In this document: positions 3,026-63,483 of the stretch, one piece after another | Layout: each line of letters begins with the position of its first letter | How positions within the stretch are numbered: the stretch's first letter is position 1 | From: Heptranchias perlo | Lineage: Eukaryota | Assembly (NCBI RefSeq): GCF_035084215.1 | Contig: NC_090340.1 | Coordinates: 15,066,001 to 15,130,000, forward strand | Length of the DNA: 64,000 nt | Reading direction: 5' to 3' | Program-made: the position numbers and the translations under genes | Notes under the pieces: model-generated | The model's database searches: none | What the model was told of the DNA's origin: nothing | The model's input: the letters and a program-made list of their open reading frames with translations, nothing else

Positions 3026-3029
3026 CATA

Positions 3030-4200: not shown

Positions 4201-4409
4201 CATCCGCTGCCCGAATTGGTGGTCGAGGCAGGGACCCTCAACGTTTTTAAAATTACCTGGACCTGCACCTAAAGTGCTGTAAACTGCAGGGCTATGGACC
4301 GGATGCTGGAATGTTGGATTAGAATGGGCACCTGGTTGTTCTTCGAGCCGGCGCGGACAGGTTGGGCCGAATGGCCCGCTTCTCTGCTGTATGGTTCTAT
4401 TCGTTGGTT

Positions 4410-7400
4410 CTATTAAACGGGATTCGATAATCGGGGGATAGACAGGCATTTCTGCAACCGCCGACGTGAGTCCTGCATGGTGTGTTGCCTCCCTGGTGCC
4501 AGGGTAAAGGACGCCACTGAGAGGGTGCAGAACATTTTGAGGGGGAAAGGGAACAGTCAGAAGTTGTGGTCCATGTGGGAACCAATGATATAGGAAGGAA
4601 AAGGGTTGAGGTCCTGCAGTCACAGTTTCTGAGCTTAAGGGGCGGGTGGCATCATTACAGTGCATACGGAAAGCTGAGCGTTTCATGGATAGCACGTTTC
4701 AGGAGGTGGTCACTCAGCAGCTACAGACACTTCAGGCCGATAGGGAGTGCGCGACTCATGTCGGCACGTGCAAGGGAGCAAGTTGAAAAGTAGGACCTCA
4801 AACGTACTAATCTCTGGATTACGCCCAGTGCCACTCGCTAGTGATTATATCAATAGTAGGATAAGACAGGTTAATCTGTGGCTGGAGCATTGGTGCAGGG
4901 GGGACGACTTCAGATTCCTGTGACATTGGGGCCATTTATGGGGCAGGAGGGATCTGTTCAAGACGGACGTGTTGCACCTCAATAGAGTTGTGACCAATGT
5001 CCTCGCGGGGAGGTTAACTAGTGATACAGGAAGGGTTTACACTAATTTGGATGGGTATGGGCAGCAGAAGGAAATATTAGAGGTGATAAACAAGGTCCAC
5101 AGAGGACTGGGAGCGACTAGTAGCACTAGAGTAAAGAGTAGTTCAGAAATTGGAGAGACCAGACAGGGGGCAAATGCAAGGCAGTCCAAGATGAGATTGG
5201 AGTGCTTGTGCATGAATGCACATAGTGTGGTAAATAAGTTTGGTGAGCTACATCAAGTTGGAACATTCAAATGGAACTATGATACACTGGCATAACAGTC
5301 CTGGCTCAAAGAAGGGGACGATTGGGTATTTAATATTCCTGGCAACAAGGTATTCGGGAAATATAGGGAAGGAAAGAAAGGAGGAGGCGTCAGTATTAAT
5401 CAATGTAAGTATTATAGCACTGGAAAGGGATGATGCAGCTTTGGTGTCAAAGACAGAATCTGTTTGGTTATTAGTAAGGAACAATAGATGAACTATTTCC
5501 CTACTGGGTGCATGCTATAGGCCACCAAATAGTTGGAAGGAGGTCGAGGAGGAAATATGCAGGCAAATCACTGCAAGATGCAAGAGCTATAGAGTAGTGA
5601 TAATGGGGGTCTTCAATGGGCAAAGAACGAATGAATTTCCTGAAATGTATTCAGGAGAACTTTCTGGAAGAGTGTGTTTCCAGCCCAGCCAAGAAGGAAT
5701 CAGTGCTGAATCCAAATCTGGGGAATGAAGTGGGGTAGTTGCAGCATTCGGTGGGGGGAGCATTTGGGGAATAGAGATCATAATATCATTCGGTTTAGAA
5801 TAGTTATGGAAAAGGGCAAGGAACAATCAAATGTGAAAATGGATAACTGGAGGAGGGCAATTTTCAGTGAGTTACAGGGGGATCTTACCCTGGTGGATTG
5901 GAATCAAAAATTGCTCGGCAAAGCAGTAATTGAACAATGGAAGGCTTCCACAGAGGAGTTGGTTCGGGTACGAAGTAGACACATCCCTACGAGGGGGAAA
6001 GGAAGACCATCCAAAGCCAGAGCTCCCTGGATGACTAAAGATATAGAGAGTAGAATGAAACAGAAAAAGGAGGCCTTATGAAAATATAAGGTTTATAATA
6101 CAGTAGAGAGTCAGGCTGAATACAGAAATTATAGCGAGGACCTAAAAACAGGGACTAAGAGGGGCAAGGAGAAAGAGTGTGACAATAGATCAGCGGCTGA
6201 CATAAAACATAAAAGAGACCCCAAAAGTAAAAGGGGAGTCAAAGGAAACGTGGGACCGATTAGGGACAAAAAGGAGCTGTATTTGTGGAGGCAGAGGGCA
6301 TGGCTTAGGCACTAAATGAATAATTCGCATCTGCCTTCACTAGTGAATAGGATGCTTCCATTGTAGCAGAAAAGGAGGAGGTAGTAGCAATATTGGATCA
6401 GATAAAAATAGATAAAGAGGAGGCACTTAAAAGATTGACGGTGGAAAAGTAGAAAAGTCACCCGGTCCAGATGGGATACATTCTAGATTACTGAGGGAAG
6501 CAAGGGTGGAAATTGCGGAGGCTCTGGCCACAATCTTTTAATCCTCCTCAGATATGGGGATGGTGCTGAAGGGCTGGAGGATTGCAAATGTTACAACCCT
6601 GGTCCAAGAAAGGAAGAGGGATAAACCCGACATTTACAGGTCAGTCAGCCTAAAGTCGTCGGTGCAAAAGCTTTTAGAGACAATAATCCGGGACAAAATT
6701 AATTGGCACTTGGTAAATTATGGACTAATAAATAAAAGTCTGCACAGATTTGTTAATGGAAAATCGTGCTTAACTAACTTGATTGAGTTCTTTGATGAAG
6801 TAACGGAGAGGGCTGATGAGCGTAGTGCAGTTGATGTTTTGCATGTGGACTTTCAAAAAGCACTTGATAAAGTACCAAATAAAAGACTTGTTAGCAAAAT
6901 TAAAGCCCATGGGATTAAAGAGACAGTGGCAGCGTGGATACGAAATTGGCTAAGGGACAAGAAGCAGAAAGCAGCGTTGAACTGTTGCTTTTCAGACTGG
7001 ACGGAAGTATACAGTGGTGTTCCCAAGGGATCAGCATTAGGACCACTGCTCTTTCTGATATATATTAATGATCTGGACTTGGGTATAGAGGGCATAATTT
7101 CAAAGTTTGCAGATGATATTAAACTCAGAAATATAGTAAACAATGTGAAGGATAGCAAAAGACTTCAGCGGGAGAAGTGTGAAATAATGCATTTTGGCAG
7201 GAAGAATGAGGAGAGGCAAAATAAAATAAATAGTATAATTTTAAAGGAGGTGCAGGAACACAAAGACCAGGGGGTGCACATACACAAATCTTTGAAGGTG
7301 GCAGGACAAGTTGAGAAGGCTGTTAAAAAAGCATATGGGATCCTGCGCTTTATCAAAGAGGCAAAGAGTATAAAAGGATAGAAATTATGCTAGAACTTAT

Positions 7401-12953: not shown

Positions 12954-13222
12954 GTCAGTGAAGCGGAATCGAGCGCTTCCTTGTTCGGCTTTACCTGGGT
13001 TTACTGGTAATTCTGGTGCTGACCGGTATTATTGTGGAACATGCAAAATCAACTTCAGTTAAATGTAAGATAGTGGTTTGTTAATTCAGAAAATCACCAT
13101 CATAATATTGATTTATTTATTTTTCCAATGTTCTCCTCTCCTCGAAGTGTTGATTTTTCCTGGCTACAGATCTCCGGACCTGGGCCAGAAAGCCATTGTT
13201 CATCTGTGACCCGAGACAGTGA
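12954..13222 (+). pseudogene. 3' end of a third immune-receptor gene: TM exon 12954-13064 (GQ*SGIERFLVRLYLGLLVILVLTGIIVEHAKSTSVK) and short tail exon 13170-13222 (YLRTWARKPLFICDPRQ*)
   Basis: Polypyrimidine tract plus tatag acceptor, gtaaga donor, 111 nt in phase 1-1. TM pattern LxR...hydrophobic...E as in LILRA/FcaRI/GPVI/NKp46. In-frame TGA at 12959-12961. No ectodomain exons found in the window. Confidence 0.62.
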
Positions 13223-13429: not shown

Positions 13430-14731
13430 TGCATGGTTTTGTGAGAGGAAAATCATGTCTCACGAATTTGATTGAGTTTTTTGAAGGGGTAACCAAGAAG
13501 ATAGATGAGGGCTGTGCAGTAGACGTGGTCTACATGGACCTGAGCAATGCCTTTGACAAGGTACCGCATGCTAGGGATCCAAATCTCTCGGGATCCAAGG
13601 TGAGGTAGCCAATTGGATACAAAATTGGATTGACGACAGAAGACAGAGGGTGGTTGTAGAGGGGGGTGGTTGTAGAGGGTTGTTTTTCATACTGGAGGCC
13701 TGTGACCAGCGGTGTGCCTCAGGGATCGGTACTGGGTCCGCTGTTATTTGTTATTTATATTAATGATTTGGATGAGAATTTAGGAGGCATGGTTAGTAAG
13801 TTTGCAGATGACACCAAGATTGGTGGCATTGTGGACAGTGAAGAAGGTTATCTAGGATTGCAACGGGATCTTGATAAATTGGACCAGTGGGCCGATGAAT
13901 GGCAGGTGGAGTTTAATTTAAATAAATGTGAGGTGATGCATTTTGGTAGATCGAATCGGGCCAGGACCTACTCCGTTAATGGTAGGGCGTTGGGGAGAGT
14001 TATAGAACAAAGAGATCTAGGAGTACAGGTTCATAACTCCTTGAAAGTGGAGTCACAGGTGGATAGGGAGGTGAAGAAGGCATTCAGCATGCTTGGTTTC
14101 ATTGGTCAGAACATTGAATACAGGAGTTGGGATGTCTTGTTGAAGTTGTACAAGACATTAGTAAGGCCATATTTGGAATACTGTGTACAGTTCTGGTCAC
14201 CCTATTATAGAAAGGATATTATTAAACTAGAAAGAGTGCAGAAAAGATTTACTAGGATGCTACCGGGACTTGATGGTTTGACTTATAGGGAGAGGTTGGA
14301 TAGACTGAGACTTTTTTCCCTGGAGAGTAGGAGGTTTAGGGGTGATTTTATAGGAGTCTATAAAATAAAGAGGGGCATAGATAAGGTAGATCGTCAAAAT
14401 CTTTTCCCAAAGGTAGGGGAGTCTATAACGAGGTGGCATAGATTTAAGGTGAGAGGGGAAAGATAAAAAAGGGTCCAGAGGGGCAATTTTTTTCACTCAA
14501 AGGGTGGTGAGTGTCTGGAACGAGCTGCCAGAGGCAGTAGTAGAGGCGGGTACAATTTTGTCTTTTAAAAAGCATTTGGACAGTCACATGGGTAAGATGG
14601 GTATAGAGGGATATGGGCCAAGTGCAGGCAATTGGGACCAGCTTAGTGGTATAAACTGGGCGACATGGACATGTTGGGCCGAAGGGCCTGTTTCCATGTT
14701 GTAAACTTCTATGATTCTATGATTCTATGAT
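13430..14731 (+). mobile_element. Relatively young 5'-truncated CR1 LINE (RT to tail)
   Basis: 266-aa RT ORF 13666-14466; (ATTCTATG)n 3' tail. Confidence 0.92.
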
Positions 14732-24535: not shown

Positions 24536-26108
24536 TGATTATCTGTCTTTTCTACTGGTAGCGTTTCAGTGTTGCTACAGATATCTTACTGCAACCAAAG
24601 GAGCCAGTCTTTGGCTTTGTGGTAGCATACCCACCTCTGAATCAACAGGTGCACGGTTCAACCCCTACTGCAGAATGTCCTGGCCAGTGGAGACTGGAGC
24701 TCCAGCTCTGGGTTCACATCCAACGTGATACAGACTCCCAGTGGGTCAGGGTGACCAGTGTGTAGGTTGTGCAAGCAACACTCCTGCGTATAGGGCTAAC
24801 CATTTTATTGGCTGGCATAACGATGGTGATAACCATGAAAGGAGCGCCCTGTGAAACTGCGAATCCTTCCCTTAATTCACACTATTCACCAAGGTGGGAT
24901 ACAAAAACAACTACTGGAATTAACATCGCAGCAGAAGTATAATTAATAAATACAGTTGAATGGGATATTCTAATTTGAACTACAACTGAGCTAAAGTAAA
25001 GTATTGTCAATGGAAATAAAAATGGGGAGAGATGTTAAACCGGTTGCCGATTCGCAACCACACTATCGCACAAAATCAAAATCTACCGCAATGAGTTAGG
25101 AAACCGTCACTTCATGTCTGAGAGCCAGGTTTCAATCCTCAATACATAGTAATTGGAATCTCTTTGTTTTCGCCATTGTGAAATGAGATTTAACAGTCGT
25201 AAGCCTGAATCCAATGAACTTGGGTCCACAGCAGAAAATTGTCCCTAAATTGGTACTAATTATGAATCTCGCTTCGATAGATCAGATAGGAGGCTATTGT
25301 GAGAACTGTTATCCTGCTCCAGTCCTATTCGCAATTTCCGATTGCATGAAACTATTCGAACAGCATAGAGGGAGCCGCAACTAACTCACACTATATCTGA
25401 CCTGACAGCGCTTCATTGCCGTGCCGAATGCATGAAATAGGGAGTGTTCCCTTCCTTGGAATTAACATTCTTCACTTGATGAGTCCGAAAAAAGTACGGA
25501 AGAAAACCGCCAGGGATTTAGTAGAAAATACAAGTTGGATTCCGAACTAAAGTTTGCATCCAAATTCTCCCCCAGTTATGATGCACGCTTGTTGCTAGAT
25601 TCCCCCCACCGAAATTCACACTGAACTGACTAAAGTTGTGTTAAATAGTACCGCTCACGTCGAGCGGCTACTCATTTTCGATCGAGTTGGTATATTGCTT
25701 CGGAAACGTGGTTATTTACTCTTCAGGCTGGCTCAATTCAGACCGCGTGCAGTCCAAAGTTTATAATAAAAATATGCAATTGCAAGGGATCCACTGCACA
25801 GTCACCAAACAAACCTGACCACCGTTGTTTTCAGTAACACTGCTACTTAAAGCGTGTCTTTGATATCAGTGCGAGGAGCGCTGTCTTCTGCTCACCAGCG
25901 ATCCCGTTAAACTATTATTGCCAGAATAGATTTTAATTCCATTTGGGTGTAGGGAGGATTCAATCCAGGCCCCAGAAGGGAAGAAACAGTTTGCAAACCA
26001 ATGCGCCGCTCAGTACGCACAGTACGTGCCCAATGGTGACTCAAGTTTGTTAAGCACCCTGTTCACCATTGCCCGGATTGAGATGCATTAATATAAAACC
26101 AATCGAAG

Positions 26109-27865
26109 TCATGGAAAATGACCCCACGATGACGGCATCGCAGCGACAGCATCAATACTCAACACCAACAACAGCCAATCTCCAGACGCCATCCTACAAC
26201 TCATCCGCTTCATCCTGGATCACAATGTCTTCACCTTCGATAACCAGTTCTTTACCCAAACACACGGAACAGCCATGGGGACCAAATTCGCACCCCAATA
26301 CGCCAACATTTTCATGCACAAGTTCGAGCAGGACTTCTTCACTGCACAGGACCTCCAACCAACGCTATACACCAGATACATCGACAACATTTTCTTTCTA
26401 TGGACCCACAGCGAAGAATCACAAAAGAGACTACACGATAACATCAACAAGTTTCATCCCACCATCAAGCTCACCATGGACTACTCCTCAGAATCAGTTT
26501 CTTTCTTGGACACACGAATCTCCATCAAAGACGGGCACCTCAGCACCTCACTCTACCGCAAGCCCACGGACAACCTCACGATGCTCCACTTTTCCAGCTT
26601 CCACCCTAACCACGTCAAAGAGGCCATCCCCTATGGACAGGCCCTGCAAATACACAGGGCCTGCTCAGACGAGGAGGAACGTGATGGACACCTACAGACT
26701 CTGAAAAATGCCCTAGTAAGAACGGGATATGACGCTCGACTCATCGATCGACAGTTCCGACAGGCCACAGCAAAAAATCGCATGGACCTCTTCAGAAGAC
26801 AAACACGGGACGCAACCAACAGAGTACCCTTCGTCGTCCAGTACTTCCCTGGAGCGGAGAAACTACACCATGTTCTCCACAGCCTTCAACATGTCATCGA
26901 TGACGATGATCACCTCGCTATGGCCATTCCCCACACCTCCACTACTCGCCTTTAAACAGCCACCCAACCTCAAACAGACCATCGTTCGCAGCAAATTACC
27001 CAGCTTTCAAGAGAACAGCGTCCACGACACCACACAGCCCTGCCACGGTAACCTCTGCAAGACATGCCAGATCATCGACACAGATACCACCATCACACGA
27101 GAGGACACCACCCACCAGGTACATGGTTCATACTCCTGTGACTCGGCCAACGTTGTCTACCTCATACGTTGCAGGAAAGGATGCCCTGGAGCATGGAACA
27201 TTGGCGAGACCATGCAGACGCTGCGACAACGGATGAACGGACACCGTGCAACAATCGCCAGACAGGATGGTTCCCTCCCAGTCGGGGAACACTTCAGCAG
27301 TCAAGGGCATTCAGCCACTGACCTTCAGGTAAGCGTACTCCAAGGCGGCCTTCGAGACACACGACAACGCAAAATCGTCGAGCAGAAATTGATAGCCAAG
27401 TTCCGCACCCATGAGGACGGCCTCAACCGGAATCTTGGGTTCATGTCAGGCTACACGTAACCCCACCAGCGAACAAAAGTTATCTGTTTTTAATATAATG
27501 GGTCATTTGCTGTCTTTCTCTTCCTTCCGGATGTTTCTGTGTTTCTGCCTCTCTCTCTGTTTTTTTTTTGTTTTTTGTTTTTTTTTTGGTTGTTTGTATA
27601 TTCGGTGGTCCTGTAGATAACACCTCTCTGTCTGAACACTTGGCAACGGGCAGTTGGAAAGATTACCTGTAATCACCAGGTATTGTTCTGTGATTTATAA
27701 ATGCGAAAGGTTCGAGGATTTCCTGACATTCACCTGAAGAAGGAGGAAGCCTCCGAAAGCTTGTGATTTTCAAATAAAATTGTTGGACTATAACTTGGTG
27801 TTGTAAAATTGTTTACAATTGTCAACCCCAGTCCATCACCGGCATCTCCACATCATGGAAAATGA
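26109..27865 (+). mobile_element. Penelope-like element, 5'-truncated (RT and GIY-YIG endonuclease), with 13-bp direct repeat TCATGGAAAATGA
   Basis: GTAMGTKFAPQYANIFM, RYIDNIF, NVVYLIRC..IGET..RMNGHR. One frameshift near 26930. Direct repeats at 26109-26121 and 27853-27865. Confidence 0.92.
27730..27766 (+). ncRNA. Minimal type I hammerhead ribozyme in the Penelope terminal repeat
   Basis: UCAC-CUGAAGA-A-GGAGG-aag-CCUCC-GAAA-GCUU-GUGA: core motifs, stem I UCAC/GUGA, stem II, palindromic AAGCUU stem III. Confidence 0.75.
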
Positions 27866-32199: not shown

Positions 32200-35100
32200 T
32201 TTATTCGTTCATGGGGTGTGGGCGTCGCTGGTGAGGGAAGCATTTATTGCTCATCCCTAATTGCCCTTGAGAAGGTGGTGGTGAGCGGCCTTCTTGAACC
32301 GCTGCTGTCCGTCTCGTGAAGGTTCTCCCAAAATGCTCTTAGGAAGGGAGTTCCAGGATTTGACCCAGCAACGATGAAGGAACGATGATATATTTCCAAG
32401 TCCGGACGGTGTGTGACTTGGAGGGGAACGTGCAGGTGGTGTTGTTCCCATGTACCTGCTGCTCTTGTCCTTCTAGGTGGTAGAGGTCGCGGGTTTTGGA
32501 GGTGCTGTCGAAGAAGCCTTAGCGAGTTGCTGCAGTGCATCCTGTGGATGGTACACACTGCAGCCACTGTGCGCCGGTGGTGAAGGGAGTGAATGTTTAG
32601 GGTGGTGGATGGGGTGCCAATCAAGCGGGCTGCTTTGTCCTGGATGGTGTCGAGCTTCTTGAGTGTTGTTGGAGCTGCACTCATCCAGGCAATGTGGAGT
32701 ATTCCATCACACTCCTGACTTGTGCCTTGTAAATGGTGGAAAGGCTTTGGGGAGTAGGGAGGTGAATTACTCACCGCAGAATACCCAGCCTCTGACCTGC
32801 TCTTGTAGCCACAGTATTTATATGGCTGGTCCAATTAAGTTTCTGGTCAATGGTGACCCCCAGGATGTTGATGGTGGGGGATTCGGTGATCGTAATGCCG
32901 TTGAATGTGAAGGGGAGGTGGTTAGACTCTCTCCTGTTGGAGATAGTCATTGCCTGGCACTTGTCTGGTGCTAATGTCACTTGCCACTTATGAGCCCAAG
33001 CCTGGATGTTGTCCAGGTCTTGCTGCATGCAGGCTCGGACTGCTTCATTATTTGAGGTGTTGCAAATGGAACTGAATATTGTGGAACCGTCAGCGAACAT
33101 TCCCATTTCTGACCTCACGATGGAGGGAGTCTCATTGATGAAACAGCTGAAGATGGTTGGGCCGAGGACACTGCCCTGAGGAACTCCTGCATCAATGTCC
33201 TGAGGCTGAGATGATTGGCCTCCAACAACCACTACCATCTTCCTTTGTGCTAGTTATGACTCCAGCCACTGGAGAGTTGTCCCCCTGATTCCCATTGACT
33301 TCAATTTTACTAGGGCTCCTTGGTGCCACACTCGGTCAAATGCTGCCTTGATATCAAGGGCAGTCACTCTCACCTCACCTCTGGAATTCAGCTCTTTTGT
33401 CCATGTTTGGACCAAGGCTGTAATGAGGTCTGGAGCCGAGTGGTCCTGGCAGAACCCAAACTGAGCTTCAGTGAGCAGGTTATTGGTGAATAAGTGCCGC
33501 TTGATAGCACTGTCGACGACACCTTCCACCACTTTGCTGATGATTGAGGGTAGACTGATGGGGCGGTAATTGGCCGGATTGGATTTGTCCTCATTTTTGT
33601 GGACAGCACATACCTGGGCAATTTTCCACATTGTCGGGTCGATGCAAGTGTTGTTGCTGTACTGGAACAGCTTGGCGAGATGCGCAGCTAGTTCTGGAGC
33701 ACAATTCTTCAGCACTACAGCTGGGATGTTATGGGGCCCATAGCCTTTGATGTATCTAGCGCACTCAGCCGTTACTTGATATCATGCGGAGTGAATCGAA
33801 TTGGCTGAAGACTGGCTTCTGTGATGGTGGGGATATCGGGAGGAGATTGAGATGGATCATCCACTCCGCACTTCTGGCTGAAGATGGTTGCAAACGCTTC
33901 AGCCTTGTCTTTTGCACTCACGTGCTGGACTCCGCCATCATTGACGATGGGGATGTTTACAGAGCCTCCTCCTCCCACTATTTGTTTAATTGTCCACCAC
34001 CATTCACGACTGGATGTGGCAGGACTGCAGAGCTTTGATCTGATCCGTTGGTTGTGGGATTGCTTAGCTCTGTCTTTCGCATGTTGCTTCCACTGTTTAG
34101 CATGCATGTAACCCTGAGTTGTAGCTGCACCAGGTTGGCACCTCATTTTTAGGTACGCCTGTTGCTGCTCCTGGCAAGTTCTTCTACACTCCTCATTGAA
34201 CCAGGGTTGATCCCCTGGCTTATTGGTGATGGTAGAATGAGGAATATGCCAGGCCATGAGGTTACAGGTTGTGCTGGAATACAATTCTGCTGCTGCTAAT
34301 GGCCCACAGCACCTCATGGATGCCCATTTTTGAGCTGCTAGATCTGTACTGAATCTATCCCAATTCGCACAGTGGTAGTGCCACACAACACGTTGGTTGT
34401 TGTCCTCAGTGCTAAGATGGGACTTCATCTCCACGAGTACTGTGCGGTGCCACTCCTACCAATACTGACAAGGATAGAAGCATTTGCGACAGGTAGATTG
34501 GTGATTATGAGGTCAAGTAGGTTTTTCCCTCGTGTTGGTTCGCTCACCACCTGTTGCAGGCCCAGTCTGGCAGTTATGCCCTTCAGGACTCGGCCAGCAA
34601 TGGTGCTACCGAGCCACTCTTGGTGATGGACATTGAATTCCCCCACCCAGAGTATATTCTGTGCCCTTGCTACTCTCAGTGCTTCCTCCAAGTGGTGTTC
34701 TACATGGAGGAGGACTGATTCATCAGCTGAGGCAGGGCAGTAGGTGGTAATCAGCAGAAGATTTCCTTGCCCATGTTTGACCCGATGCTATGAGATTTCA
34801 TGGGGTCCAGAGTCGATATTGAGGTCTCCCAGGGCCACTCCCTCCTGACTGTATATCACTGTACCACCACCTCTGGTCGGTCTGTCCTGCCGGTGGAACA
34901 GGACATACCCAGGGATGGTGATGGAAGAATCTGGGACATTGGCTGAAAGGTATGATTCTGTGAGTATGGCTATGTCAGGCTGTTGCTTGACGAGTCTGTG
35001 GCACAAGTCCCCAGATGTTAGTGAGGAGGACTTTGCAGGGTCGAACTGGGCTTAGTTTGCCTTTGTCGTGTCCGGTGGTCCGTCCTGTTTTATTCTTATT

Positions 35101-35972: not shown

Positions 35973-36027
35973 ATGTCGACAAGTATGATGTTTCTGTGCT
36001 TGACGCTCCGGGGGATTATTTACACAG
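35973..36027 (+). CDS. Gene A exon 1, signal peptide MSTSMMFLCLTLRGIIYT
   Basis: Hydrophobic leader, donor ACAG|gtacc in phase 1, same 55-nt length as gene B exon 1. Confidence 0.85.
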
Positions 36028-39000
36028 GTACCTCTTTATTCACAAGAACAGCTAATTTAATTTATAAAAGGATTCCGAAATAGTTTCCACATAAATGCAA
36101 TGAACGTAATTCCTCTATTTAGATTCATTTTTTCTCTCTTCCATCTCCATGTCGTATCTCATACAATTAACCCGGACTTGACTACATTTTCTGACAGCTG
36201 CGGACCACACTTCGTTCAGAGTGACTCAAGTGCCCGAACAGGCGACTCTATCCAGAGGGGGAAACATCACCTTCTACTGCATATTCCCCATCTCTCAAAC
36301 CCATTCCTGGGTAAGAGTGTATTGGTGGAAACAGGGTGAAAATAAATACCTGCAAAGAAGCGCCGATAAGAGGAAACAATTTGGTCTGGAAGGTAAAGCG
36401 AGCGGTTTCTTTCAGTTAATGCGCGCGACTTTCCAAGACTCTGGAGTCTATCACTGCGCAGTGATCCGAGAGGGAACAGTCGGAGGAAATGGAACCGGAT
36501 CACATCTAATTGTGTATGGTAAGTGTGAAACACCACAGAGCGGGACTGTCGTAAAGGTATCAAACATAACAAACGGGAATGTTTTGTGATTGCGTTATTG
36601 TACAGTTTTTGACACTATAAACATTTCTGTGAAAACTTTTCGCGAGAAAGTTAAGTTGTATATTCGTGTTCTCTTTATATAACTGTCAATTACAGAGTAA
36701 AATGTAACCCTCCACTCGCAGGGTACGGCAAAATGTATCCATGTTAAGCAATTGGACTGTACCTCCAAATAAATTTATACACCAGATGCCTGAAGTTCGT
36801 AACAAATTCCAAGCGGAGTGAAAATTGTTCATATTAATGCGCGTCCCCGACCATGTACACGGCTCTTAGCCCATTTTGGATGCTCTGACTGCTCCCATCG
36901 CTGTCTCTGGGGTTTAACATTCTTGAAATTAATTCTCACTTCATGATTGGCTCGTTAGCGTCACAGATTTGAAAGCCAGCGTGCAACTAACTGTTGACTA
37001 ACGGATTCATTCAACAACGTGGAGCTCGGAATTCACAACGTCGTCACCTCACGAACCCCCAATAATCACAATACGCAAGAACTGTGGTACTGAAACCTCC
37101 TGAGGTTCAACCGAATATAGTTTCTTTCATCAATTGTCATGCTTCGGCTGTGAGATCTGTCCGATATTGACTAATACCCTCCTTTTATCATCGGCAATGT
37201 GTAGATCACTCGTCACTGCCTAAATGAGTTTAAAAAAACATGGAGGGACAGGGGACGCCAACTTTCCCCCAGGGTTTATTTGTTTAATTCTTTGGACTAT
37301 GAAACGCGACATTGATTAGCGATTGAAGCGACGTTTCTGCTCCACTATCGAGTCCAAAATTCAACGTTTTGGACTCGATAGTGCGTGTAAAATTAAACAG
37401 ATGTCGGTGACGATGAGTGATATGGATGAGGTGTGGGTAGATGATATGCCTAAAATAAAAAGGACAGGAGGCTGTGCTTTGGAATGTTGCTGTTACAATC
37501 AAATAGACCGAAGGTAAATAAGATTCATATTTAATTTTTCCCAATATTGCGCAGTAACTCGATTTTGTTCATTGTCTGTTCCGCAGCTGCCCCAACTCCA
37601 CTGAAGATTGCCTCGAGGACAGCTGAAGGGAATTCATCTGCGCCTCTGACTCTTGTGTGTGAAACGGCTGAGTTTTATCCGGAGAATTTCACCCTCACTT
37701 GGTATAAAAATGGCGTCGAAACTACAAGAAGAATAAATACCATTAAACGGCAGAACACTGAGGGGCTGTATGAAGTTTCCAGTTCTTTGGAAGAGACGCA
37801 GCCTGTCCCGAGCGGCACGAATTATACCTGTTTGGTATCTCATGTCTCCCTCGAGACTCCAGCTGTTATCACCTATACTAAATTTAACCCAGGTACGAGG
37901 CCAATGGTCCAGCTACTCTTAAATTCGCAAAGAGCTATATCTTAGAGTTTGTGCCTATTAATATGGTTCACAGAAAACTCATGGGAAATATTATCGGAAA
38001 CACCCGCCATAATGTACAACATTATTCTTGCAGATCCTGTCGGTATGTCCCCTTACTACTCGGGTTTTAGATATGCGGTGGGCGGTTTGGCGTTTCTCGT
38101 GCTCCTGGTCATCATTGGAACGCACTGCCAATTGCAGGTTAAAAAAGGTATGATCTACTGAAACCGTTTGATTTTCATACAAAACTTCAGAGAGCGGTGG
38201 AGAGGGAAAGTGAGGGTCTCCGAGTAACACAAAGGACAACTCAGTTATGACTTAAACTTGAAGGCAGTGTTATCTGATTTCAGGGAACGCCGATTGTTCC
38301 AGACAGTAATGGATTCTGATCCTCAAGAATCAGATTAAAAATAGTCCTGATTACCTGTGTATTTACAACAAAAGTTTCCACTTTGCAGCGTGATAAATGA
38401 AATGTACCGTGACACACGATCACTTTCCAAACCAGTGGGCTGTGGGTCTGCAATTCGTTTGAGTGAAGCGGTGTGAGCTTCCGGCCGGTAACGGTTGTAG
38501 ATCATTGCTGATCTCTACAGAGGCTTGGATTCAAACATTGTCGTTGCAAGAAATATCTTTGAAACCACTGATATGGAAAAGTAGTAAATATTTCAATCAT
38601 TCATTATGATTACATTTCATTAATTCACAGGTGAAAAAGATGGAACGGGATCGAAGCGACGTGAAAAGCCGGTACGTTCATTCATTCATTTCCACAAAGG
38701 GTTCAATTATGCAGAAAGATTGATATCATGGAGATATTTTACATAATCATGTCAGAACAGTTTGCCTATTTCCTAAATGTGGAGATGCCGGTGATGGACT
38801 GGGGTTGACAAATGTAAACAATCTTACAACACCAAGTTATAGTCCAACAATTTTATTTGAAAATCACAAGCTTTCGGAGGCTTCCTCCTTTCCTAAAAGT
38901 ATTTGTTCCGCTTAATGGGTCATTCAAATCGTGTTCAGAAAAATATTTGACGCTGGCAGGGAAGGAGTTCACCCTCGAGGGCGAAATTGGCTTTCAGAGA

Positions 39001-39493
39001 AGTAAAGCCAGCGCGGTGTAAAACGGGCGGTCAATTCGCTCGATTCGCGCTACCGCGGAAGACCAATTTCAACCCCGTCCCCATTGCGTTGCCGTTTAAA
39101 ATTGTTAAATACTAGAAAAGAAAACTGTCTGTTTCGTTGATAATGTACCTAACTAATAACTGTTTATAGACTCAATATTATTTTTAATTCGGGAAAAAAC
39201 GAAATGAATTTGTGTTCTGGAACTACCGCTCATTTAAACACTTCTGTATTGTAGAATGAAGATTGACAGCTTTAAATATGTGTTATAGTGACCACAGTAC
39301 TCACCGGTCTCAACATTTGCACTTATGTAACTATATTAATTATGGTTTCTGTACTTCATCTCTAGCCCAAGTTGTTCTGTTCATTGTTTAATCAGTATTC
39401 TGTGAACTGGTGAACTAGCCACATTACAAAACATATACTTGTTTCTGGCCCATGCAGGAAGCAAAGGCTGATATCGTTGATACGCTGCAGTAG
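35973..39493 (+). CDS. Gene A: IgSF VJ-C1 type I membrane receptor (SIRP/NKp30-like), short Tyr-free tail, TM Arg, putative activating. Exons 35973-36027, 36198-36518, 37587-37892, 38034-38147, 38631-38671, 39458-39493; 290 aa
   Basis: All introns are GT-AG with consistent phases (1,1,1,1,0) and the 873 nt join into one ORF. Exon-for-exon homology with gene B. Confidence 0.88.
36198..36518 (+). CDS. Gene A exon 2, V-set Ig domain with fused J-like strand
   Basis: ITFYC...VYWWK...DSGVYHC...GNGTGSHLIV. Acceptor ctgacag, donor gtaagt. Confidence 0.93.
37587..37892 (+). CDS. Gene A exon 3, C1-set Ig domain
   Basis: LVCETAEFYP, WYKNG, YEVSSSL and YTCLVSHVSL match the C1-set signature. ccgcag acceptor, gtacga donor. 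Confidence 0.93.
38034..38147 (+). CDS. Gene A exon 4, stalk and TM (SGFRYAVGGLAFLVLLVIIG)
   Basis: Hydrophobic run, ttgcag acceptor, gtatga donor, phase 1-1. Confidence 0.88.
38631..38671 (+). CDS. Gene A exon 5, cytoplasmic (GEKDGTGSKRREKP)
   Basis: ttcacag / gtacgt. Positional homologue of gene B 62132-62175, with similar flanking intron sequence. Confidence 0.78.
38769..38897 (-). mobile_element. Penelope 3'-terminal fragment in gene A intron 5, with TSD TTTCCTAAA
   Basis: Near-identical reverse complement of about 27741-27853. Absent from the homologous gene B intron. Confidence 0.85.
39458..39493 (+). CDS. Gene A exon 6, truncated tail EAKADIVDTLQ*
   Basis: Acceptor ttctggcccatgcag is identical to that of gene B exon 6. 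A 1-nt deletion relative to B leads to TAG at 39491-39493. Confidence 0.72.
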   Translation, partial: EAKADIVDTLQ

Positions 39494-39762
39494 GTTTGGC
39501 CAGAACCAAATAAACTCCAAGACGTAAACTTGCAGAGAAAAGGACTGTGTTCAATTGGGCGGGGTGGGAAGCGGATCAGACAGATACAGATCATCAGTGT
39601 AGCACCAAAATTCATGCGATAACGGAGAATATAAGGCTAGCTAACTCTGGTGGTGTATTATATCGAAAGCTGTTCGTGTGTTATTCTGATGATTCTTTTC
39701 AGCAGCTGTCCACAAATTGGCAAAACGACCAATTAACAATATTTCCAAACACGGGTTTACAG

Positions 39763-39825
39763 CCCAAAAAAGGCACCTTCGCGACTCTAGATTTGACAGT
39801 CCAAAAAACGGGGAAATCCAAATAA
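39763..39825 (+). pseudogene. Relic of the ITIM exon behind gene A (PKKGTFATLDLTVQKTGKSK*)
   Basis: Aligns to gene B terminal exon (LTYATLELSGSGKARKSK) with Tyr->Phe. The tttacag acceptor is retained. Confidence 0.72.
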
Positions 39826-39918
39826 AAGAGAAAGACATTGCAATATTATATCATTGAATGTGGGTGTAATTGTTTGTTTCTGCTTACATATTTGAGGAAT
39901 TCTCATTTATTTACTTGT

Positions 39919-39924
39919 AATAAA
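39919..39924 (+). terminator. Candidate polyA signal of gene A
   Basis: AATAAA in the context acttgtAATAAAaa, shared with gene B 63484-63489. Confidence 0.5.
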
Positions 39925-40869
39925 AATGCACTTACGTTGCACATTTTTTGAACATTCTGCAGTTTTTAATAGATGACAAATCGCTGCAACGCTACATAAT
40001 TGTTTTGCTGTACCTAGTTATTATCGTGCGTAATTTCAATAAAAAGACTTTCTACGATTTCTATCTTTTCACTATTAGTGATCCTTTTTCTTCGCGAGTA
40101 ATGCTGCAAAACTTGGGGTTTGATATATGTGTTGCCTTACTGCATTCAGAAGTCCAATCCAGGCGATTCTCCTGATGTGGAAGGCAGGACGCTCCAGTCT
40201 ATGGACTCGTCTATAAACCCACTGAACCCAGCTTGCAGTTGATGGAGCATGACATGCCTTTCTCTAAACTCTATATGAATATTCATTCCGATCCGAAACG
40301 ATGCGCCCAGACAATTCCAAGTAGCTTCCAGAGGAAAGGCCCCGATTATTCTCATCAGGATCTATCTTCAAGAGGACAGAGATTCTAGAGAGTTCTGAGG
40401 CAAGCAACAATAATGAATCCGGAAATGGCAATTCAGTTGTGAGGAAAGCCCCACGAAGCTGAATGCATTTCATTGGCGAAAATACCAAATTGAAATGGAT
40501 TCAGGTCTTTAAAATGTAGAAAGACGTGGATAAGATAGATATAAGCAGGTTGCATGGTTTAACGCGCAACCAGAGGCTCGGAATTAACAAGCCTCAGGAA
40601 AGAGAATAGAGCTACAACCATTTAGCTCTTTAAGCGTGGCTCCCTGGTCAGCTGAGGGAAAATTGTAGTTTGAATGGATAAACTGTCAGCTATTTAGGAA
40701 TTAGATCACTTCAATTACAGGGTGAGGACGAGCTGGTTACTGGAAGAACAGCAGCCCAGCACTTCCAGAGACTAAGCCTTTAACTCAGAATTCAAAGATA
40801 ATACAAGACGAAATGAATGAGTTGCATTTTATTTCGCCTAACTGCCCTGGTTTGATGACTGTGTCCATC

Positions 40870-57105: not shown

Positions 57106-57160
57106 ATGTTGTCGAGTCTGATGTTTCTGTGCCTGTCTCTCCGGGGAATTAGTTACACAG
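57106..57160 (+). CDS. Gene B exon 1, signal peptide MLSSLMFLCLSLRGISYT
   Basis: Paralogous to 35973-36027, donor ACAG|gtacc. Confidence 0.85.
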
Positions 57161-60100
57161 GTACCTGTTATTCTCTATCCCATCTGTCTCAATAAATAAA
57201 ACATCTGAAGGAGTTATCATATGAATTGAATTAGATTGATATCGTCCATCTATATTCTTCTTTCTCTAATTTATTTCCATGTACAAATATTTTCTAAAGT
57301 GTCTGGTTCCACATAGAATATAAATAACCAAATGTTTAAAATATTTTATAACAGCTGCTGCACGTATTTCTCAAACTCCCGAAAAGATGATTGCATTAAG
57401 GGGGACAGACATCACCTTCTACTGTGTAATCCCCCTCTCTCAGGACAACTCAGGGGTAGAAGTGCGTTGGTGGAAAGGGGGTGAGAACGAATATCTGCAA
57501 ACAGGCGCCGATAACAGAAAACGATTTGGTGTCAAAAATAAAGGAGCCGGTATCTTTGAGCTGCGGAACGTGACTTTCCAGGACTCTGGAATCTATCACT
57601 GCGCAGTGATCCGTCAGGGAAGAGTTAGTGAAAATGGAACGGGCTCAAATCTAATTGTGTGCGGTAAGTGACTGGGATGATCGGGAACTTCCAAATTTAT
57701 CAGATGTAACAAGAGGTCATTTTGCGATTGTTTCATTGTAAATTTTTGACGTATAAAAAAGTTATTTTAATACATTTACATTCAAACTCAATGTTACTCC
57801 GATGTCTCTGTACACAGCTGCTAATTACACGGCATAATATGGCGCTTCATTTGCTGAGTGGTGTGAAATTCCATCAATATTAACCAGAGTAAGTAACATA
57901 TTACTGGATTCATCTCAAAATGTAGTTTCTACATCAGACTTCTGAGGAGGGAAGGTGCGGAACAAATTCCAAATATATTGATGACTGACTGAAAATACTA
58001 TATATTAATGCACCTCTCCCGCCATTTATACGGCTCTTACCTTGTTTTAGGTGCTCTGTTTGTCCCCGTCACTGTCGGAGAGGTTTAACGGTCTCTGCTG
58101 AAATTAATGCTCAGAAAATGACAGGCTGGTTCGATTGGTGGATTTCAAATCAGATGCAATTAACTCAACAATCGATGGATTCAATCAACAAACGGGACCA
58201 CGAACCAAAATTTCGCCGCCTCTTTCGCCTCCAATAAATAAAATATTCCGCAGAGACTGAGCGGCTGAAACTTTCTGAGATTGAATGGAATGTAATTTCC
58301 TTCAGCCATTCCCATGCTCGGGCAGTGTGCACTGCCCGATAATCATTTGGTCCCTCCTTTTATTCTCGATAATGTACAGACTTTCCGTTTCTCTCTTGGG
58401 GAGACAGTCAGACAGGGCCAGAGTTACGAACAAACGGGGAATGACTGAGAATGGCATCAATCGCTCATATCTTACGTTTAATATCTCCCCAGTAACCTGA
58501 TTTTCCCCATTGTCTGTTCGACAGCTGCCCCAACTCCACTGAAGATTGTCTCCAGAACACCCGAGTGCAAATCGTCTGCCTCTCTGACTCTTGTGTGTGA
58601 AACGGCTGAGTTTTACCCGGAGGATTTCACCCTCACTTGGTATAAAAATGGCGTCAAAACCACAACTGGGATAAATATCACTAAACGGCAGAACACCGAG
58701 GGTTTGTATGAAGTTTCCAGTTCTTTGGAAGAGACGCAGCTTAAGCGGAATGGATCTGTTTACATCTGTTTGGTAACTCATGTCACCCTCCAGGAACCCG
58801 CCATTGTAACTTACACTGTAAGCAATTCCAACCCAGGTAAGAGGCCAACAGGCCAAGAACTGAGGTCAGCTACTGTTAAATACTGAAAGGGTATTTCATA
58901 GAGTTTGTTCATATTGATAATCATAAGATAATTTGAATTAAATTCCCGGGAAATCGGACAGAAAATACATGTTTCAATGTAATATATTATTTACCCGAAC
59001 CTGTTGTAAAAACGGAAGTAATATTGTCGCTCTCCACCCAGAAACTGCCAGTGAAACCTCGACAGCTTCCAAATTGTTTAAAAAAAAGTATAAGCAGGGA
59101 TTTTATCATTTGTATCCGATTATTTTATGTCTCTTGCGTATTACTAAACATTTAAATTTGTCCGCTTGTTAAAGTGTTTTTATTCTATCGCATTATATTC
59201 TTTCCTTACATGAGCTGCGGGACCAGGAGCTGCAGTTCGGTGTCTACCACCGAGCCTCTTCTGGTGCGGCTCCTGATTCCGAGCTCGGTTGGGCGATATT
59301 GTGAATGGGTTAGAAATCGACCTTGTGGATAGGCCGTAACCTGACCCCTCCATGATACAGAAGTTTGGAGCGGGATACCATTTCATTCCTTTCATTCAGG
59401 CCCTGCCCCAGATCTGTCTGTACTACAACCGGGTGCAAAGCATCGTTTTATTAACAACCATTTTTCTGTAATTAACAAATACTCGTGTACTTGTTTCCTT
59501 TCCTATTCAGTGACAGTCTTATTTCGGTAGATACGCTGCAGGTAATTGAATTGGCATTTAAACTAATTGAAGCAACCAGCCTTTTTTCTCAGGCAATGGC
59601 GAGTCACATGTCACTGACTGGCCCTGATTTCAGCAAACAGCTTAAGACCAGAAGAAAAGTCAATTCGAAGAACAAGTCATTCGGTCCATCGTAACTTATT
59701 CCTCTAGAATTCTAACTCTCCCAAATCAATCTTCAGAACACCCTAAACTGATTCCCTCCGTCGCAGAATATTCCGGGCATGTGTCGCCCTTTGTGACAAG
59801 GAGCTCCTTTTGATATCAGTTCTAAAAAGATAAATTAAGATTATTTTCAAATTCCCACGTTCTCGTGCTATAATGCGGAGTTACTGTAAATATGAACGGT
59901 AGTTCAACCAACAAATTATCCCGACGTCTCTATTTAGATAACGCCCGCCACAAATTAGAACTCTTTGTTCCTTTTAATCTTGCAGATCGTGACTGTAAAT
60001 ATCGTTACCTCTGGGGTGCTGGATGGGCGGTGGGTGGATTGGCGTTTCTCGTGCTCATGATCATCATTGGGACAAGATGCAATTTGAAGAATAAAGGTAA

Positions 60101-63100
60101 GTGTAACCTTAATCGTCTTATTTTCAGAAAAATCTTCAGAGGGATAGTAACAGCATCCTGGGCGGCACAGCAGGAGAAAAGTGCGAGTGTTATTTAAAGT
60201 GCAGGTGATATTATCTGATACCAAAGGAATAGAGACTACCGCTTGCTGCAAATGGCACTAAATTCAGCATCTTACAATGCAAGAATTCTCACAGAATCAT
60301 ATTATAAAGGATCTGATTATCTGGATATTAATAATGGATATTAATATCCACTTTGTGGCAGATAAGTGAAATCGGATCGATTGTTTCATCAATTTGCGGG
60401 TCCCTGACTATTTTGGGTAAAGTGGTGTCAGTGTCCAATCGGTGTCGATGTGCACGACTGCTGATGGCTTCAGGGACTCGGATTTACAATACAATCCGGA
60501 AAATGTGATATCACAAAATAACTGCGACGAGGAAGACCATTCGGTCGATCTTAATTCGTCCACCCAGATGAAAATGTTCCCCCAATGTAGAATCCAGCTG
60601 TTTGTTAAAGGATCCTGGGACTTTTGCCTCCTTTGCCGTACCTGAAAGTTTATTCCACATGTTGATCGTTGAGAAGGAGAAATTCCTGACATCATTCTTA
60701 AAATTATCATTTACTACTTTTGTCCCCCAGTACAGCACCCACAGTTAAATATTTAGTACTATATGGGTACGGTAGTGTAGTGCTTATGGTACTGAACTTT
60801 TAATCCTGAGGCCTGGATTTATAATCCAGAGAAGGTGATTGAAACAGCGCCATGGCATTTTGAGAACTTGAAACCAGTTTTTAAAATTTGGAAATAAAAA
60901 GCTGGTTTCCGTGAAAAAGCAAGTGACCGTGAAGCTGCCGGATTGTCATAAAAAGCCAAGTAATTCATTAATGTCCTTTGGGGATGGAAACCTGCCGTCC
61001 TTACTCGGTCTGGCCTATATGAGACTCCAGTCCCACACCAATGTGGTTAACTCTTAACTGTTCTCTGAAGTGGTCTAGTAAGCTAATCAGTTGTCTCTAA
61101 CTCAAGACAACTAAAGATGGAGAATAAATGCTGCCCTTGTTGGCCACACCACATCCTGAGAATGAATAAAGCAAAAATGTGGGTTAACTTTATGCGCTCA
61201 ACATTCTTATATATTTCCATAAGATCACTGCTCAGACGCCTAATTTCCAGGCTAAAAGATTAAGTTTATTCGGGGTTTCTTCATAACTCAGTTCACTGAC
61301 ACTGGGAAACCAGCCTGGTGGCTCTTCTCTGCACCGCCGCTAGCGCTAACGCTTGTTCATCAGTGACCAAAACTATTCTCAGTATTCAATGGACCATGTG
61401 ACCAGAGCACTGATGCCAGCTTTTTCTTTCCAAATTTCAAATACTGGTTTCAAGATCTCAAAATGCCATGGCGGTGTTTGAATCACCTTCTCTGGATCAT
61501 AAATCCAGGCCTCTCGCTTAAAAGTTCAGTAACATAAGCACGACACTACCGTACCCTTATATTGCTATATATTTAACTGTGGGGACTGAACTAGGGGACA
61601 CTGGTAAAAAGTAGCAAATGATAATGTTAAGAATGATGTCAGGAATTTCTTCTTCACAACGATCAACATGTGGAATAGATTCCCAATAACAGCAAAGGAG
61701 ACAAATGTCCTAGGAACCTTTAACAAACAACTGGATTCTACTTCGGGGAGCATTTTCATCAGGGTGGATGAATTAAATTCTACTGTTTTGCCTATGTAGT
61801 TCAACGTCGTATTGGCTTTGTCCACTGCTGCTCTGCTTGGATGGACATGTGTTTAGCGTCCAGTCTACTAAGACTCCTAAATCTCTTTTAGTTCCATCCT
61901 TAGCTATTTCAATGCAATCCATGGAATACATGTATAGTTTAATTTTCCTTCCCATCAGTCGTAATCTACTCTTCTCTGCATTGAATTTCATCTGCCATTG
62001 CTCTTCCCACCAATATATCTAAATTCATGTTAAGCTTAACATTGTTTCTAAAAATACTTTTGAAAGCATAAACATGGAAACTGAATAAACATTTTAATAA
62101 TTGAATGTAATCAAATATCATTCATTCCCAGGTAAACAGGAAAGTGTAACAACACCGCACCGCAATGAAGAGCTGGTAGGTTCATAACATTCATCCAGGA
62201 AGAGGGTTCGAATTTAAATAAATATTATTATGATGGAGATATTTCATCAAAAGTATTTGTCCCTCTTTGATGCGTCATTCAAATCGTGTTTTGAGAATTA
62301 TTTGGCACTTGTTGCGATGCTGGTGTAACTGGTTAAACAAAGGATAAAAACAAGGTATGATGGTAGCTTTATTCAACATATACATAGGTAATAATTACTG
62401 GTAAATCCATCTAATCGTTGCTTTTGGAATCTGATATTACACGTCTAAGATTCTAAAATTATCTCTTGTTTAATCATATCTGTAACACTGCATGGTAGTG
62501 AAAATTGACAGGTTGGAATGTGAGTTACAGTGGACACACGATTTACCGGCCTTAATATTCGTACATTTTTAAATATATTCACTGTGGTTTTATTTGAAGT
62601 CCCGATCATTCTGTGCAATATTCCATCAGCAGTCTGTAAACTGGCGAAGGCAATGAACTAGCCACATAACAAGACAATTTCCTTCTGGCCCATGCAGGCA
62701 GCAGAGAATGAGATAGCGCCTTATGCTGCATTAGATATGAGCAAAGCGAAGAGAACCCCAGGACGTAAACGTGAAGAGGCGAGGGCAGTATACGCTCAGG
62801 TAGGGCCGAGAAGCAGATAAGGGAACATAGACCACCACCGTGGCACTAACATTCATGTAATAGCGGAGTATTTTGGATTGTGCTGACTTTAACCGTGTAT
62901 TGTATCTAAAGCTATTTGTGAGTTATTCGGATGACTACTTTGAGCAGCAGTCCACAAACTGTTAAAAAGACCAATCAACAACACTTCCAAACATTGGCGT
63001 TTCAGGTAAAACAAGGAAGAGCCCGTGACAAGCTGACGTACGCGACTCTAGAATTGTCTGGCTCCGGGAAAGCGAGGAAATCTAAAAATAACCGGCAAAG

Positions 63101-63179
63101 CACAGAATATGCCGAGCTTCAGGGGAAAAAACAAAGAAGAGTAACAGAGGTCGTCTACACAGAAGCAAGAACCAAATAG
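57106..63179 (+). CDS. Gene B: IgSF VJ-C1 type I membrane receptor with ITIM/ITSM tail (SIRP-alpha-like), putative inhibitory. Exons 57106-57160, 57355-57663, 58525-58836, 59986-60096, 62132-62175, 62698-62799, 63006-63179; 368 aa
   Basis: GT-AG introns with phases 1,1,1,1,0,0 give a 1107-nt ORF. Tail motifs APYAAL, AVYAQV, LTYATL, TEYAEL, VVYTEA. Confidence 0.9.
57355..57663 (+). CDS. Gene B exon 2, VJ Ig domain
   Basis: ITFYC...VRWWK...DSGIYHC...NGTGSNLIV. About 58/98 aa identical to gene A V by hand count. Confidence 0.93.
58525..58836 (+). CDS. Gene B exon 3, C1-set Ig domain
   Basis: LVCETAEFYP, WYKNG, YICLVTHVTL. gacag acceptor, gtaaga donor. Confidence 0.93.
59986..60096 (+). CDS. 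Gene B exon 4, stalk and uncharged TM (LWGAGWAVGGLAFLVLMIIIG)
   Basis: ttgcag acceptor, gtaagt donor, hydrophobic run. Confidence 0.88.
60510..62015 (-). mobile_element. Old CR1 fragment in gene B intron 4, containing the SINE and an inverted duplication
   Basis: WQMKFNAEKS, RDLGVLVD; inverted arms 60551-60905 and 61416-61776. Confidence 0.7.
60764..61150 (+). mobile_element. tRNA-headed SINE sharing both ends with the 32200-35457 LINE
   Basis: GGGTACGGTAGTGTAGTG head and caactaaagatggagaataaatgctg...gaatgaataaa tail. Confidence 0.75.
62132..62175 (+). CDS. Gene B exon 5, cytoplasmic (GKQESVTTPHRNEEL)
   Basis: ttcccag / gtaggt, phase 1-0. Confidence 0.78.
62698..62799 (+). CDS. Gene B exon 6, cytoplasmic with APYAAL and AVYAQ(V)
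   Basis: catgcag / gtaggg, 102 nt, phase 0-0. Confidence 0.82.
63006..63179 (+). CDS. Gene B exon 7, terminal, with ITIM LTYATL and ITSM-like TEYAEL
   Basis: tttcag acceptor, lies within ORF 62931-63179, ends at TAG. Confidence 0.85.
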   Translation, partial: VKQGRARDKLTYATLELSGSGKARKSKNNRQSTEYAELQGKKQRRVTEVVYTEARTK

Positions 63180-63483
63180 TGATGCAATCTTAGGCACATA
63201 AATCAGTTTACTGGTGTATATTAATTTATCCCGCAGCCATATCAATTCCATTGATATCAATGAAAAAGAAAATCTGTTGGTTCCTATAAAAGGCCGGAGA
63301 TCCGATGCAGCAGTTTACCGCCTAAGCAGTGTCAGTGTGAATTGTCCCCATGTGAATGTTTATCCATGTTATCCAATCACCATGTATCCGAGATGTAACA
63401 CATTCCAGTATCGTGGTATATAATACACCTGTATATTTGGTTCCATTATTTGGGGATTATTAGTCAGCAATATAGTTACTTGT

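Follow-up and report, generated by a model that had tools for sequence, protein, structure and literature searches.

The derivation of activating from inhibitory receptors is a principle known in mammals. In KIR, according to the accessible part of PMC2213150, the inhibitory form is ancestral, a charged membrane residue and a stop arose on one branch in an unknown order, and spread was by recombination. The available portion of PMC2413239 describes NxxR helices of Xenopus and mammalian receptors that bind FcR-gamma, and the excerpt of PMC12447643 reports conversion and frequent loss for activating CD300C. SIRP is placed in tetrapods in the accessible sections of PMC13262535. Neither these sections, which treat IgSF ages, nor those available from the accounts of UrIg (PMC12227049) and of VJ-C1 genes (PMC10751288) mention the shark V-C1 family. 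No description of a shark V-C1 receptor family was found in the literature searched, a weak absence, since few subscription papers were covered.

Here, we describe a well-resolved shark case. The window, which is the whole stretch of 64,000 nucleotides that was analysed (C18:15066001-15130000), holds two related genes of the same exon plan, A and B. We consider it likely, from the sequence evidence, that gene A is an intact short-tailed V-C1 receptor, which would act as the activating partner of the Tyr-motif (predicted inhibitory) members of the family through a predicted adaptor of FcR-gamma/zeta type on a membrane Arg. A preliminary description of the gene A tail had read it as an inhibitory receptor losing its Tyr motifs, with two Tyr-to-Phe changes as the mark of selection. 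The sequence changes observed in gene A are real, and that interpretation is partly supported. Descent from a receptor with Tyr motifs, of the inhibitory type, holds up, and the key change is likely to be the membrane Arg (38069-38071), which the description did not cover.

The shark cluster is like activating KIR and Ly49, as far as these are treated in the accessible part of PMC2213150, in that the off-form is ancestral, the charge and the truncation fall on one branch and are not orderable, the module spreads by recombination and several copies decay. It differs in its ectodomain, which is an unrelated V-C1, and in having Arg at the outer end of the helix where KIR have Lys for DAP12. The tail was truncated by a frameshift, a donor loss and deletions in the shark, and by one stop codon in KIR and Ly49. 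In LILRA2, PIR-A, NKp46, GPVI, OSCAR, FcaR and Xenopus XFL TM1 (available portion of PMC2413239), as in the shark genes, an N-terminal membrane Arg goes with a short tail, and relatives have uncharged helices and Tyr tails. Unlike these FcR-gamma-associating receptors, gene A lacks the Asn of NxxR, its helix starting with SGFR, and has other Ig domains; its adaptor binding is a prediction only.

With SIRP-alpha, -beta and -gamma, the shark genes have in common a J-like V domain followed by C1 and the existence of long- and short-tailed pairs, and their public relatives are automatically named SIRP-like. SIRP is built of a V plus two C1 domains; the shark genes have one C1 before the membrane exon, not two. 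SIRP-beta1 has a Lys in the middle of the helix, and gene A has Arg instead. LTYATL and TEYAEL of gene B resemble SIRP-alpha motifs. The neighbours of mammalian SIRP are NSFL1C, which has a SEP domain, and PDYN; in the shark, SEP-domain matches lie on C22 and C3 and none on C18, and an opioid-peptide search matched nowhere, controls included. SIRP membership of the shark family fails on domain number and is otherwise unproven.

Results and Discussion

The V exon of gene A gave 103 matches among 128 candidates scored in the 3.2-Gb genome, of which 101 lie on C18. Among public proteins, the closest are models from sharks and rays that bear automatic names, SIRP-beta-1-like for instance. No tetrapod SIRP came up in the protein searches with the gene B V exon and P0002. 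The chondrichthyan V-C1 models P0001-P0022 (SIRP-beta-1-like, PTPNS1-like, tapasin-related-like, CD276 homolog) belong to the same family, with 36-77% identity to the queries, and have the same architecture with long and short tails; the names of the models are automatic and inconsistent. Family names for gene A rest on the searches with the gene B V exon and P0002. Three models, P0004, P0007 and P0016, contain the translations of the C1 and membrane exons of L002, L003 and L004, with tails spliced as here. A PDB sequence search with the gene B V exon gave weak Ig matches only (11 sequences, best E 1e-6).

Gene A (35973-39493, + strand, as are its exons and relic tail parts and gene B) encodes a leader, a V domain, a C1 domain, a membrane helix and a short Tyr-free tail, with all splice sites intact and an unbroken frame between ATG and TAG. 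Exon 1 (35973-36027), with its ATG, open frame and GT donor, encodes the predicted leader peptide. Exons 2 (36198-36518) and 3 (37587-37892) are open with intact AG and GT; they encode a V-type Ig domain with a J-like GxG strand and a C1-type Ig domain, and the homologous exons of gene B score as Pfam V-set and C1-set, respectively. The membrane helix is encoded by exon 4 (38034-38147), with an Arg codon, AGA (38069-38071), at its outer end, where gene B has GGA for Gly (60021-60023). The tail starts in exon 5 (38631-38671), which measures 29-44 nt among the short-tail copies, its length drifting freely. Intron 5 contains a very high-copy short repeat (38777-38890).

Gene B (57106-63179) has the plan leader-V-C1-TM-tail and is intact; its tail contains five tyrosines and its membrane helix no Arg. 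Its tail has, in frame, one ITIM of the strict S/I/V/L-x-Y-x-x-I/V/L pattern, LTYATL, and three further YxxL/V motifs that fail it; of the gene B motifs previously taken as ITIMs, LTYATL thus qualifies, but APYAAL and AVYAQV do not. An exon-like piece with AG and GT (59511-59541) lies between the C1 and membrane exons, and similar sequence occurs in several paralogues. Its inclusion would bring in a stop and a frameshift, and the gene B model leaves it out; it may be the remnant of a former stalk exon or serve to make a secreted form.

The tail of gene A is a relic of a longer one. Exon 6, whose coding part is 39458-39493, lacks one nucleotide near 39477-39478 that is present in gene B and in 22 further tails of the long type, and the new frame stops at TAG 39491-39493. 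Behind this stop, in predicted 3' UTR, follow a TAA in the old frame (39511-39513, found in six of eight short-tail copies), the relic exon-6 Tyr codon (39550-39552), which among the short-tail copies is TTC in gene A only, and the dead exon-6 donor GCGGGG (39559-39564). Relic exon 7 (39763-39832) has an 18-nt deletion near 39773, TTC at 39778-39780, and the junction of a deletion of ~288 nt near 39828-39832. In the L014 alignment, the larger deletion corresponds to gene B 63107-63394, so that TEYAEL, VVYTEA and the stop are gone and the AATAAA is spared; the AATAAA of gene A at 39919-39924 is homologous to the sole AATAAA of gene B (63484). All letters listed in the preliminary description, which include GTAGGT at 39490, are present, and the old-frame TAA, the two larger deletions and the membrane Arg come in addition. 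Over 39430-39595 and 39725-39934, DNA contigs of run X1, which may be from the same sample as the assembly, match the window letter for letter and without a gap, in agreement with the 1-nt deletion. An assembly error behind this deletion is ruled out more strongly by seven other copies with the same gap.

DNA searches with the two tails found 29 and 37 places. The tail alignment takes in 31 of the 37; the other six are incomplete or split hits, namely two in L026, one in L031 and three second partial copies. Eight rows are of the gene A type and represent six distinct lineages, L014/L015 and L021/L022 being near-identical pairs. The 1-nt exon-6 deletion is found in 8/8 of these short-tail copies and in 0/23 others, and the exon-6 donor has lost its GT in 8/8 versus 3/23, with 20 of the 23 keeping it. 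All eight also share the 18-nt deletion and the altered 3' end at which the ~288-nt deletion has removed the two distal Tyr motifs; the junction of the larger deletion was aligned for gene A and L014, and blastn supports it weakly for L021. Elsewhere, on C15 and C1, tail exons 6-7 occur as scattered copies (L027, L028 and L029); their donors are dead, and 10 kb of sequence at these places showed no ectodomain match. At L011:5800-6360, the tail of a near-copy of gene B is decaying without Arg, with a 1-nt deletion in exon 6 and Tyr-to-His, Tyr-to-Asn and Tyr-to-Phe changes.

The two Tyr codons that read TTC in gene A vary among the short-tail copies. At the exon-6 position, gene A has TTC, L001 has TAT, L017, L007, L021 and L022 have TAC, and L014 and L015 have TAA, so five of the seven short-tail copies other than gene A retain a Tyr codon. 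At the exon-7 position, the codon is TTC in gene A and its nearest sister L001 only, CAC in three copies, GAC in two and CTA in one; Tyr is lost in all six lineages. The first tail Tyr codon is TAC in 8/8. Since only gene A has the exon-6 TTC, the exon-7 TTC is confined to A and L001 and the frameshift is in all eight, both Phe codons postdate the frameshift. The Arg, the frameshift, the donor loss and the 18-nt and ~288-nt deletions are common to all copies, and their order is therefore not readable. The relatives were searched for a Tyr-to-Phe change with an intact frame, which the preliminary description had named as support for stepwise conversion; every copy with either TTC is already frameshifted. 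The earlier statement that AVY became TVF is correct for the Tyr-to-Phe codon change, but most family members read TVY, and the Ala is private to gene B.

In view of this order, the two Tyr-to-Phe changes give no support for a record of selection or of stepwise conversion, and they are probably late, ordinary drift in sequence that is predicted to be untranslated. On the tail tree, some 15 separate Tyr-destroying changes were counted at three tail Tyr codons in the 31 rows, of which two were to Phe; this share is near the expected 1 in 8, and Phe is not enriched. On the line of gene A, 27 changes fall on 297 scored post-stop sites, and four of the 103 A sites show A>T. These four include both Tyr adenines, with a nominal probability of 0.001 for a pattern that was chosen after the fact, out of three codons and six lineages.

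We regard it as improbable that selection took the tyrosines away one after another, with the two Tyr-to-Phe changes as part of the switch. This explanation survives in a narrow form only, in which a transcript that skips exon 6 keeps relic exon 7 and that tyrosine is repeatedly selected out. Splicing of gene A from exon 5 to exon 7 is indeed open for 21 codons with the relic in frame, the exon-7 Tyr codon is gone (TTC, CAC, GAC or CTA) in 8/8 copies by four changes within the group, and the coincidence of the two adenines points the same way. Against it, the exon-6 TTC of gene A lies 57 nt behind TAG and behind the old-frame TAA, and the sole in-frame AG past that TAA has no pyrimidine tract. 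Moreover, the first Tyr codon is intact throughout, Phe accounts for about its expected share of losses, and the Leu two places ahead of the exon-7 Tyr had already been taken by the 18-nt deletion. The choice was among three codons, and the state of L017 depends on the alignment. Four changes at the first two bases of the exon-7 Tyr codon are reached by 4/331 base pairs of the region, and three changes by 15/331; 13/289 base pairs differ in all six short-tail lineages without one shared change. The remaining case for selection is thus a weak one, and would concern one tyrosine, that of exon 7, and not Phe. Tyr-to-Phe changes in relic tails are to be compared with sister copies before being read as selection.

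All 15 of 15 splice routes translated across five short-tail genes yield Tyr-free tails. For gene A, the earlier finding that a jump to 39763 and the cryptic donor at 39490 both give Tyr-free tails was reproduced. Exons 5 and 6 of the short-tail genes differ in length, frame and acceptor, and the cytoplasmic tail seems free to vary provided that it is motif-free. The TAG of gene A ends 65 nt ahead of the old exon-6 junction, and nonsense-mediated decay (NMD) follows a rule of 50-55 nt for the distance from stop to junction. Since 65 nt is beyond this, loss of the exon-6 donor would protect the message, as had been proposed. Further AATAAA occur in the region at 39509, 39821 and 40038. The first (39509-39514) lies 15 nt past the stop, where sister copies have ATTAAA or AGTAAA; if it were used as an early poly(A) signal, the gene A message would stop 5' of both Phe codons.

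The membrane Arg separates the two classes of the cluster, being present in 6/6 short-tail and 0/10 long-tail membrane exons; for L021/L022, no membrane exon was found in the ~13 kb examined. Among 28 distinct membrane exons of the genome, ten have Arg in this column. Those outside the gene A group are L018, which has no tail relic within ~17 kb, L049 and L055, in which the frame runs into a stop directly after the helix, and L067 and L068. The 18 Arg-less exons include 14 with recognisable Tyr-tail exons, L045 with a partial relic, and L020, L054 and L061, for which none was detected. Fourteen stored proteins of other species were compared (from 23, leaving out four identical to loci here, four with no membrane region or an unaligned one, and one other). 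Those with Arg in the column have tiny motif-free tails (3/3), which, coming from automatic gene models, may be truncations, and 8/11 of the Arg-less proteins carry at least two YxxI/L/V motifs. On C11, the genome also has a membrane exon of FcR-gamma/zeta type that encodes Cys and Asp.

A different explanation is that gene A is an expressed decoy or adhesion receptor that does not signal, like SIRP-gamma, and that Arg only marks the helix edge. The Arg does sit at the outer edge of the helix without the Asn of NxxR, purifying selection cannot separate an activating receptor from a decoy, and the family has members with neither Arg nor a detected Tyr tail (L020/P0017, P0020). Yet Arg is kept in 6/6 while neighbours vary, and Arg in the same column accompanies motif-free tails in other branches and species, which makes a decoy unlikely in our opinion and argues for the activating receptor.

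In DNA trees of the membrane exon (117 columns), one group of the gene A set and the other Arg exons is rejected (AU p 0.024, 0.003 and 0.0006); in trees of the membrane peptide (42 rows, 37-38 columns), a single group of all Arg rows is not (AU p 0.109 and 0.050). A DNA test on all Arg rows gave p 4e-58, which is inflated by the Arg-less L020 inside the old group, and the fairer tests were relied on. Independent gains of the membrane Arg are likely from these alignments. More tentatively, activating-type members may have arisen in the family on at least three occasions through Arg in this column, in the gene A group, in L018 and in an older 'VDHF' group, with the signalling module of gene A then shuffled onto three ectodomain lineages; cartilaginous fish would show recurrent switching of KIR/Ly49 style, and the 3' UTR would still preserve a legible fossil of the inhibitory tail. 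At 12974-13051 (+) of the window lies a lone piece that resembles a membrane exon of the older 'VDHF' type and likewise has Arg in that column; no V or C1 exon is near it within the window, and it is probably a relic.

Gene B had served as the close comparison partner of gene A, and it is a poor one. The gene A V exon is 95% identical to that of L001, 94% to those of the long-tail L002 and L003, and 73% to that of gene B; these identities and the trees reject gene B as the direct ancestor. In the trees of membrane exon and tail, which were rooted at the midpoint on a distant long-tail cluster, the short-tail copies form one group (100/98 and 100/99, respectively). The V+C1 tree, by contrast, scatters them over three positions and rejects a single group (AU p 5.6e-89). 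From this conflict, recombination of the short-tail module is inferred, and the module, as placed by these trees, is on at least three ectodomain lineages. The V exons of short-tail L007 and long-tail L008 are 98% identical, and this near-identical on/off pair suits ligand and signalling tests; the cluster as a whole has enough copies to date lesions. L008 and L009 have a V-exon donor GC, not GT, and are otherwise intact long-tail genes.

Compared with L001, gene A shows the signature of purifying selection: 20/548 non-synonymous and 16/184 synonymous sites differ, and 211/2395 in introns (p 2e-5 versus introns). In the membrane exon alone, one of 81 non-synonymous and six of 30 synonymous sites differ (p 0.0015). 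V+C1 alone is significant versus introns (p 3e-4) and not versus its own synonymous sites (p 0.27). Membrane-exon pN/pS is 0.54 over all short-tail pairs versus 0.85 for long-tail pairs, the pairs not being independent. The view that gene A is no plain pseudogene is borne out by the dN test. It could still be a recent pseudogene or silent copy with an ectodomain that looks intact through exchange with working neighbours. Several neighbours are broken (L005, L010, L017), but splice sites and frame are intact from ATG to TAG, and the membrane exon, with its single non-synonymous difference, is not suppliable by long-tail genes; we consider a pseudogene very unlikely. Three runs guessed to be RNA cover 3, 2 and 3 of 30 bins, mostly the intron repeat, with 0 in the tail.

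The sequences of the cluster show the following course for the activating receptor that we favour. One ancestral long-tail gene of the cluster gained Gly-to-Arg in the membrane exon, the 1-nt exon-6 frameshift, the loss of the exon-6 donor, the 18-nt exon-7 deletion and the ~288-nt deletion that took the last two Tyr motifs. Copies of the module then came to sit on at least three ectodomain lineages, by putative recombination, and the old exon 6-7 sequence drifted, with the two TAC>TTC changes in this late phase. Transcription, escape from nonsense-mediated decay, Arg-Asp pairing with the adaptor, an activating signal, and a ligand common to gene A and partners of the L002/L003 type are presumed. 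As in a paired activating receptor, the ectodomain of gene A is near that of an inhibitory-type relative, its tail is free of Tyr motifs, and its membrane Arg is absent from the partners. Against the model stand the frameshifts in exons 1 and 3 of L017, one of the five distinct short-tail genes with ectodomains, the lack of a membrane exon in the stretch of L021/L022 examined, the V+C1 result versus synonymous sites, the missing Asn, the nominal coincidence of the two adenines and the loss of the exon-7 Tyr in 6/6 lineages; exchange with inhibitory genes could also import conserved ectodomain sequence.

Near-identical gene pairs lie ~300-340 kb apart (L008/L009, L014/L015, L021/L022, L024/L025 and L011/B), in blocks at about 14.68-14.79 Mb and 14.98-15.13 Mb of C18, which either arose by a recent segmental duplication or are two haplotypes that the assembly placed in tandem. 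The window also has long open frames (1775-7378, 13660-14463, 26054-27457 and 32247-34455), fragments of which we take to resemble LINE reverse transcriptase.
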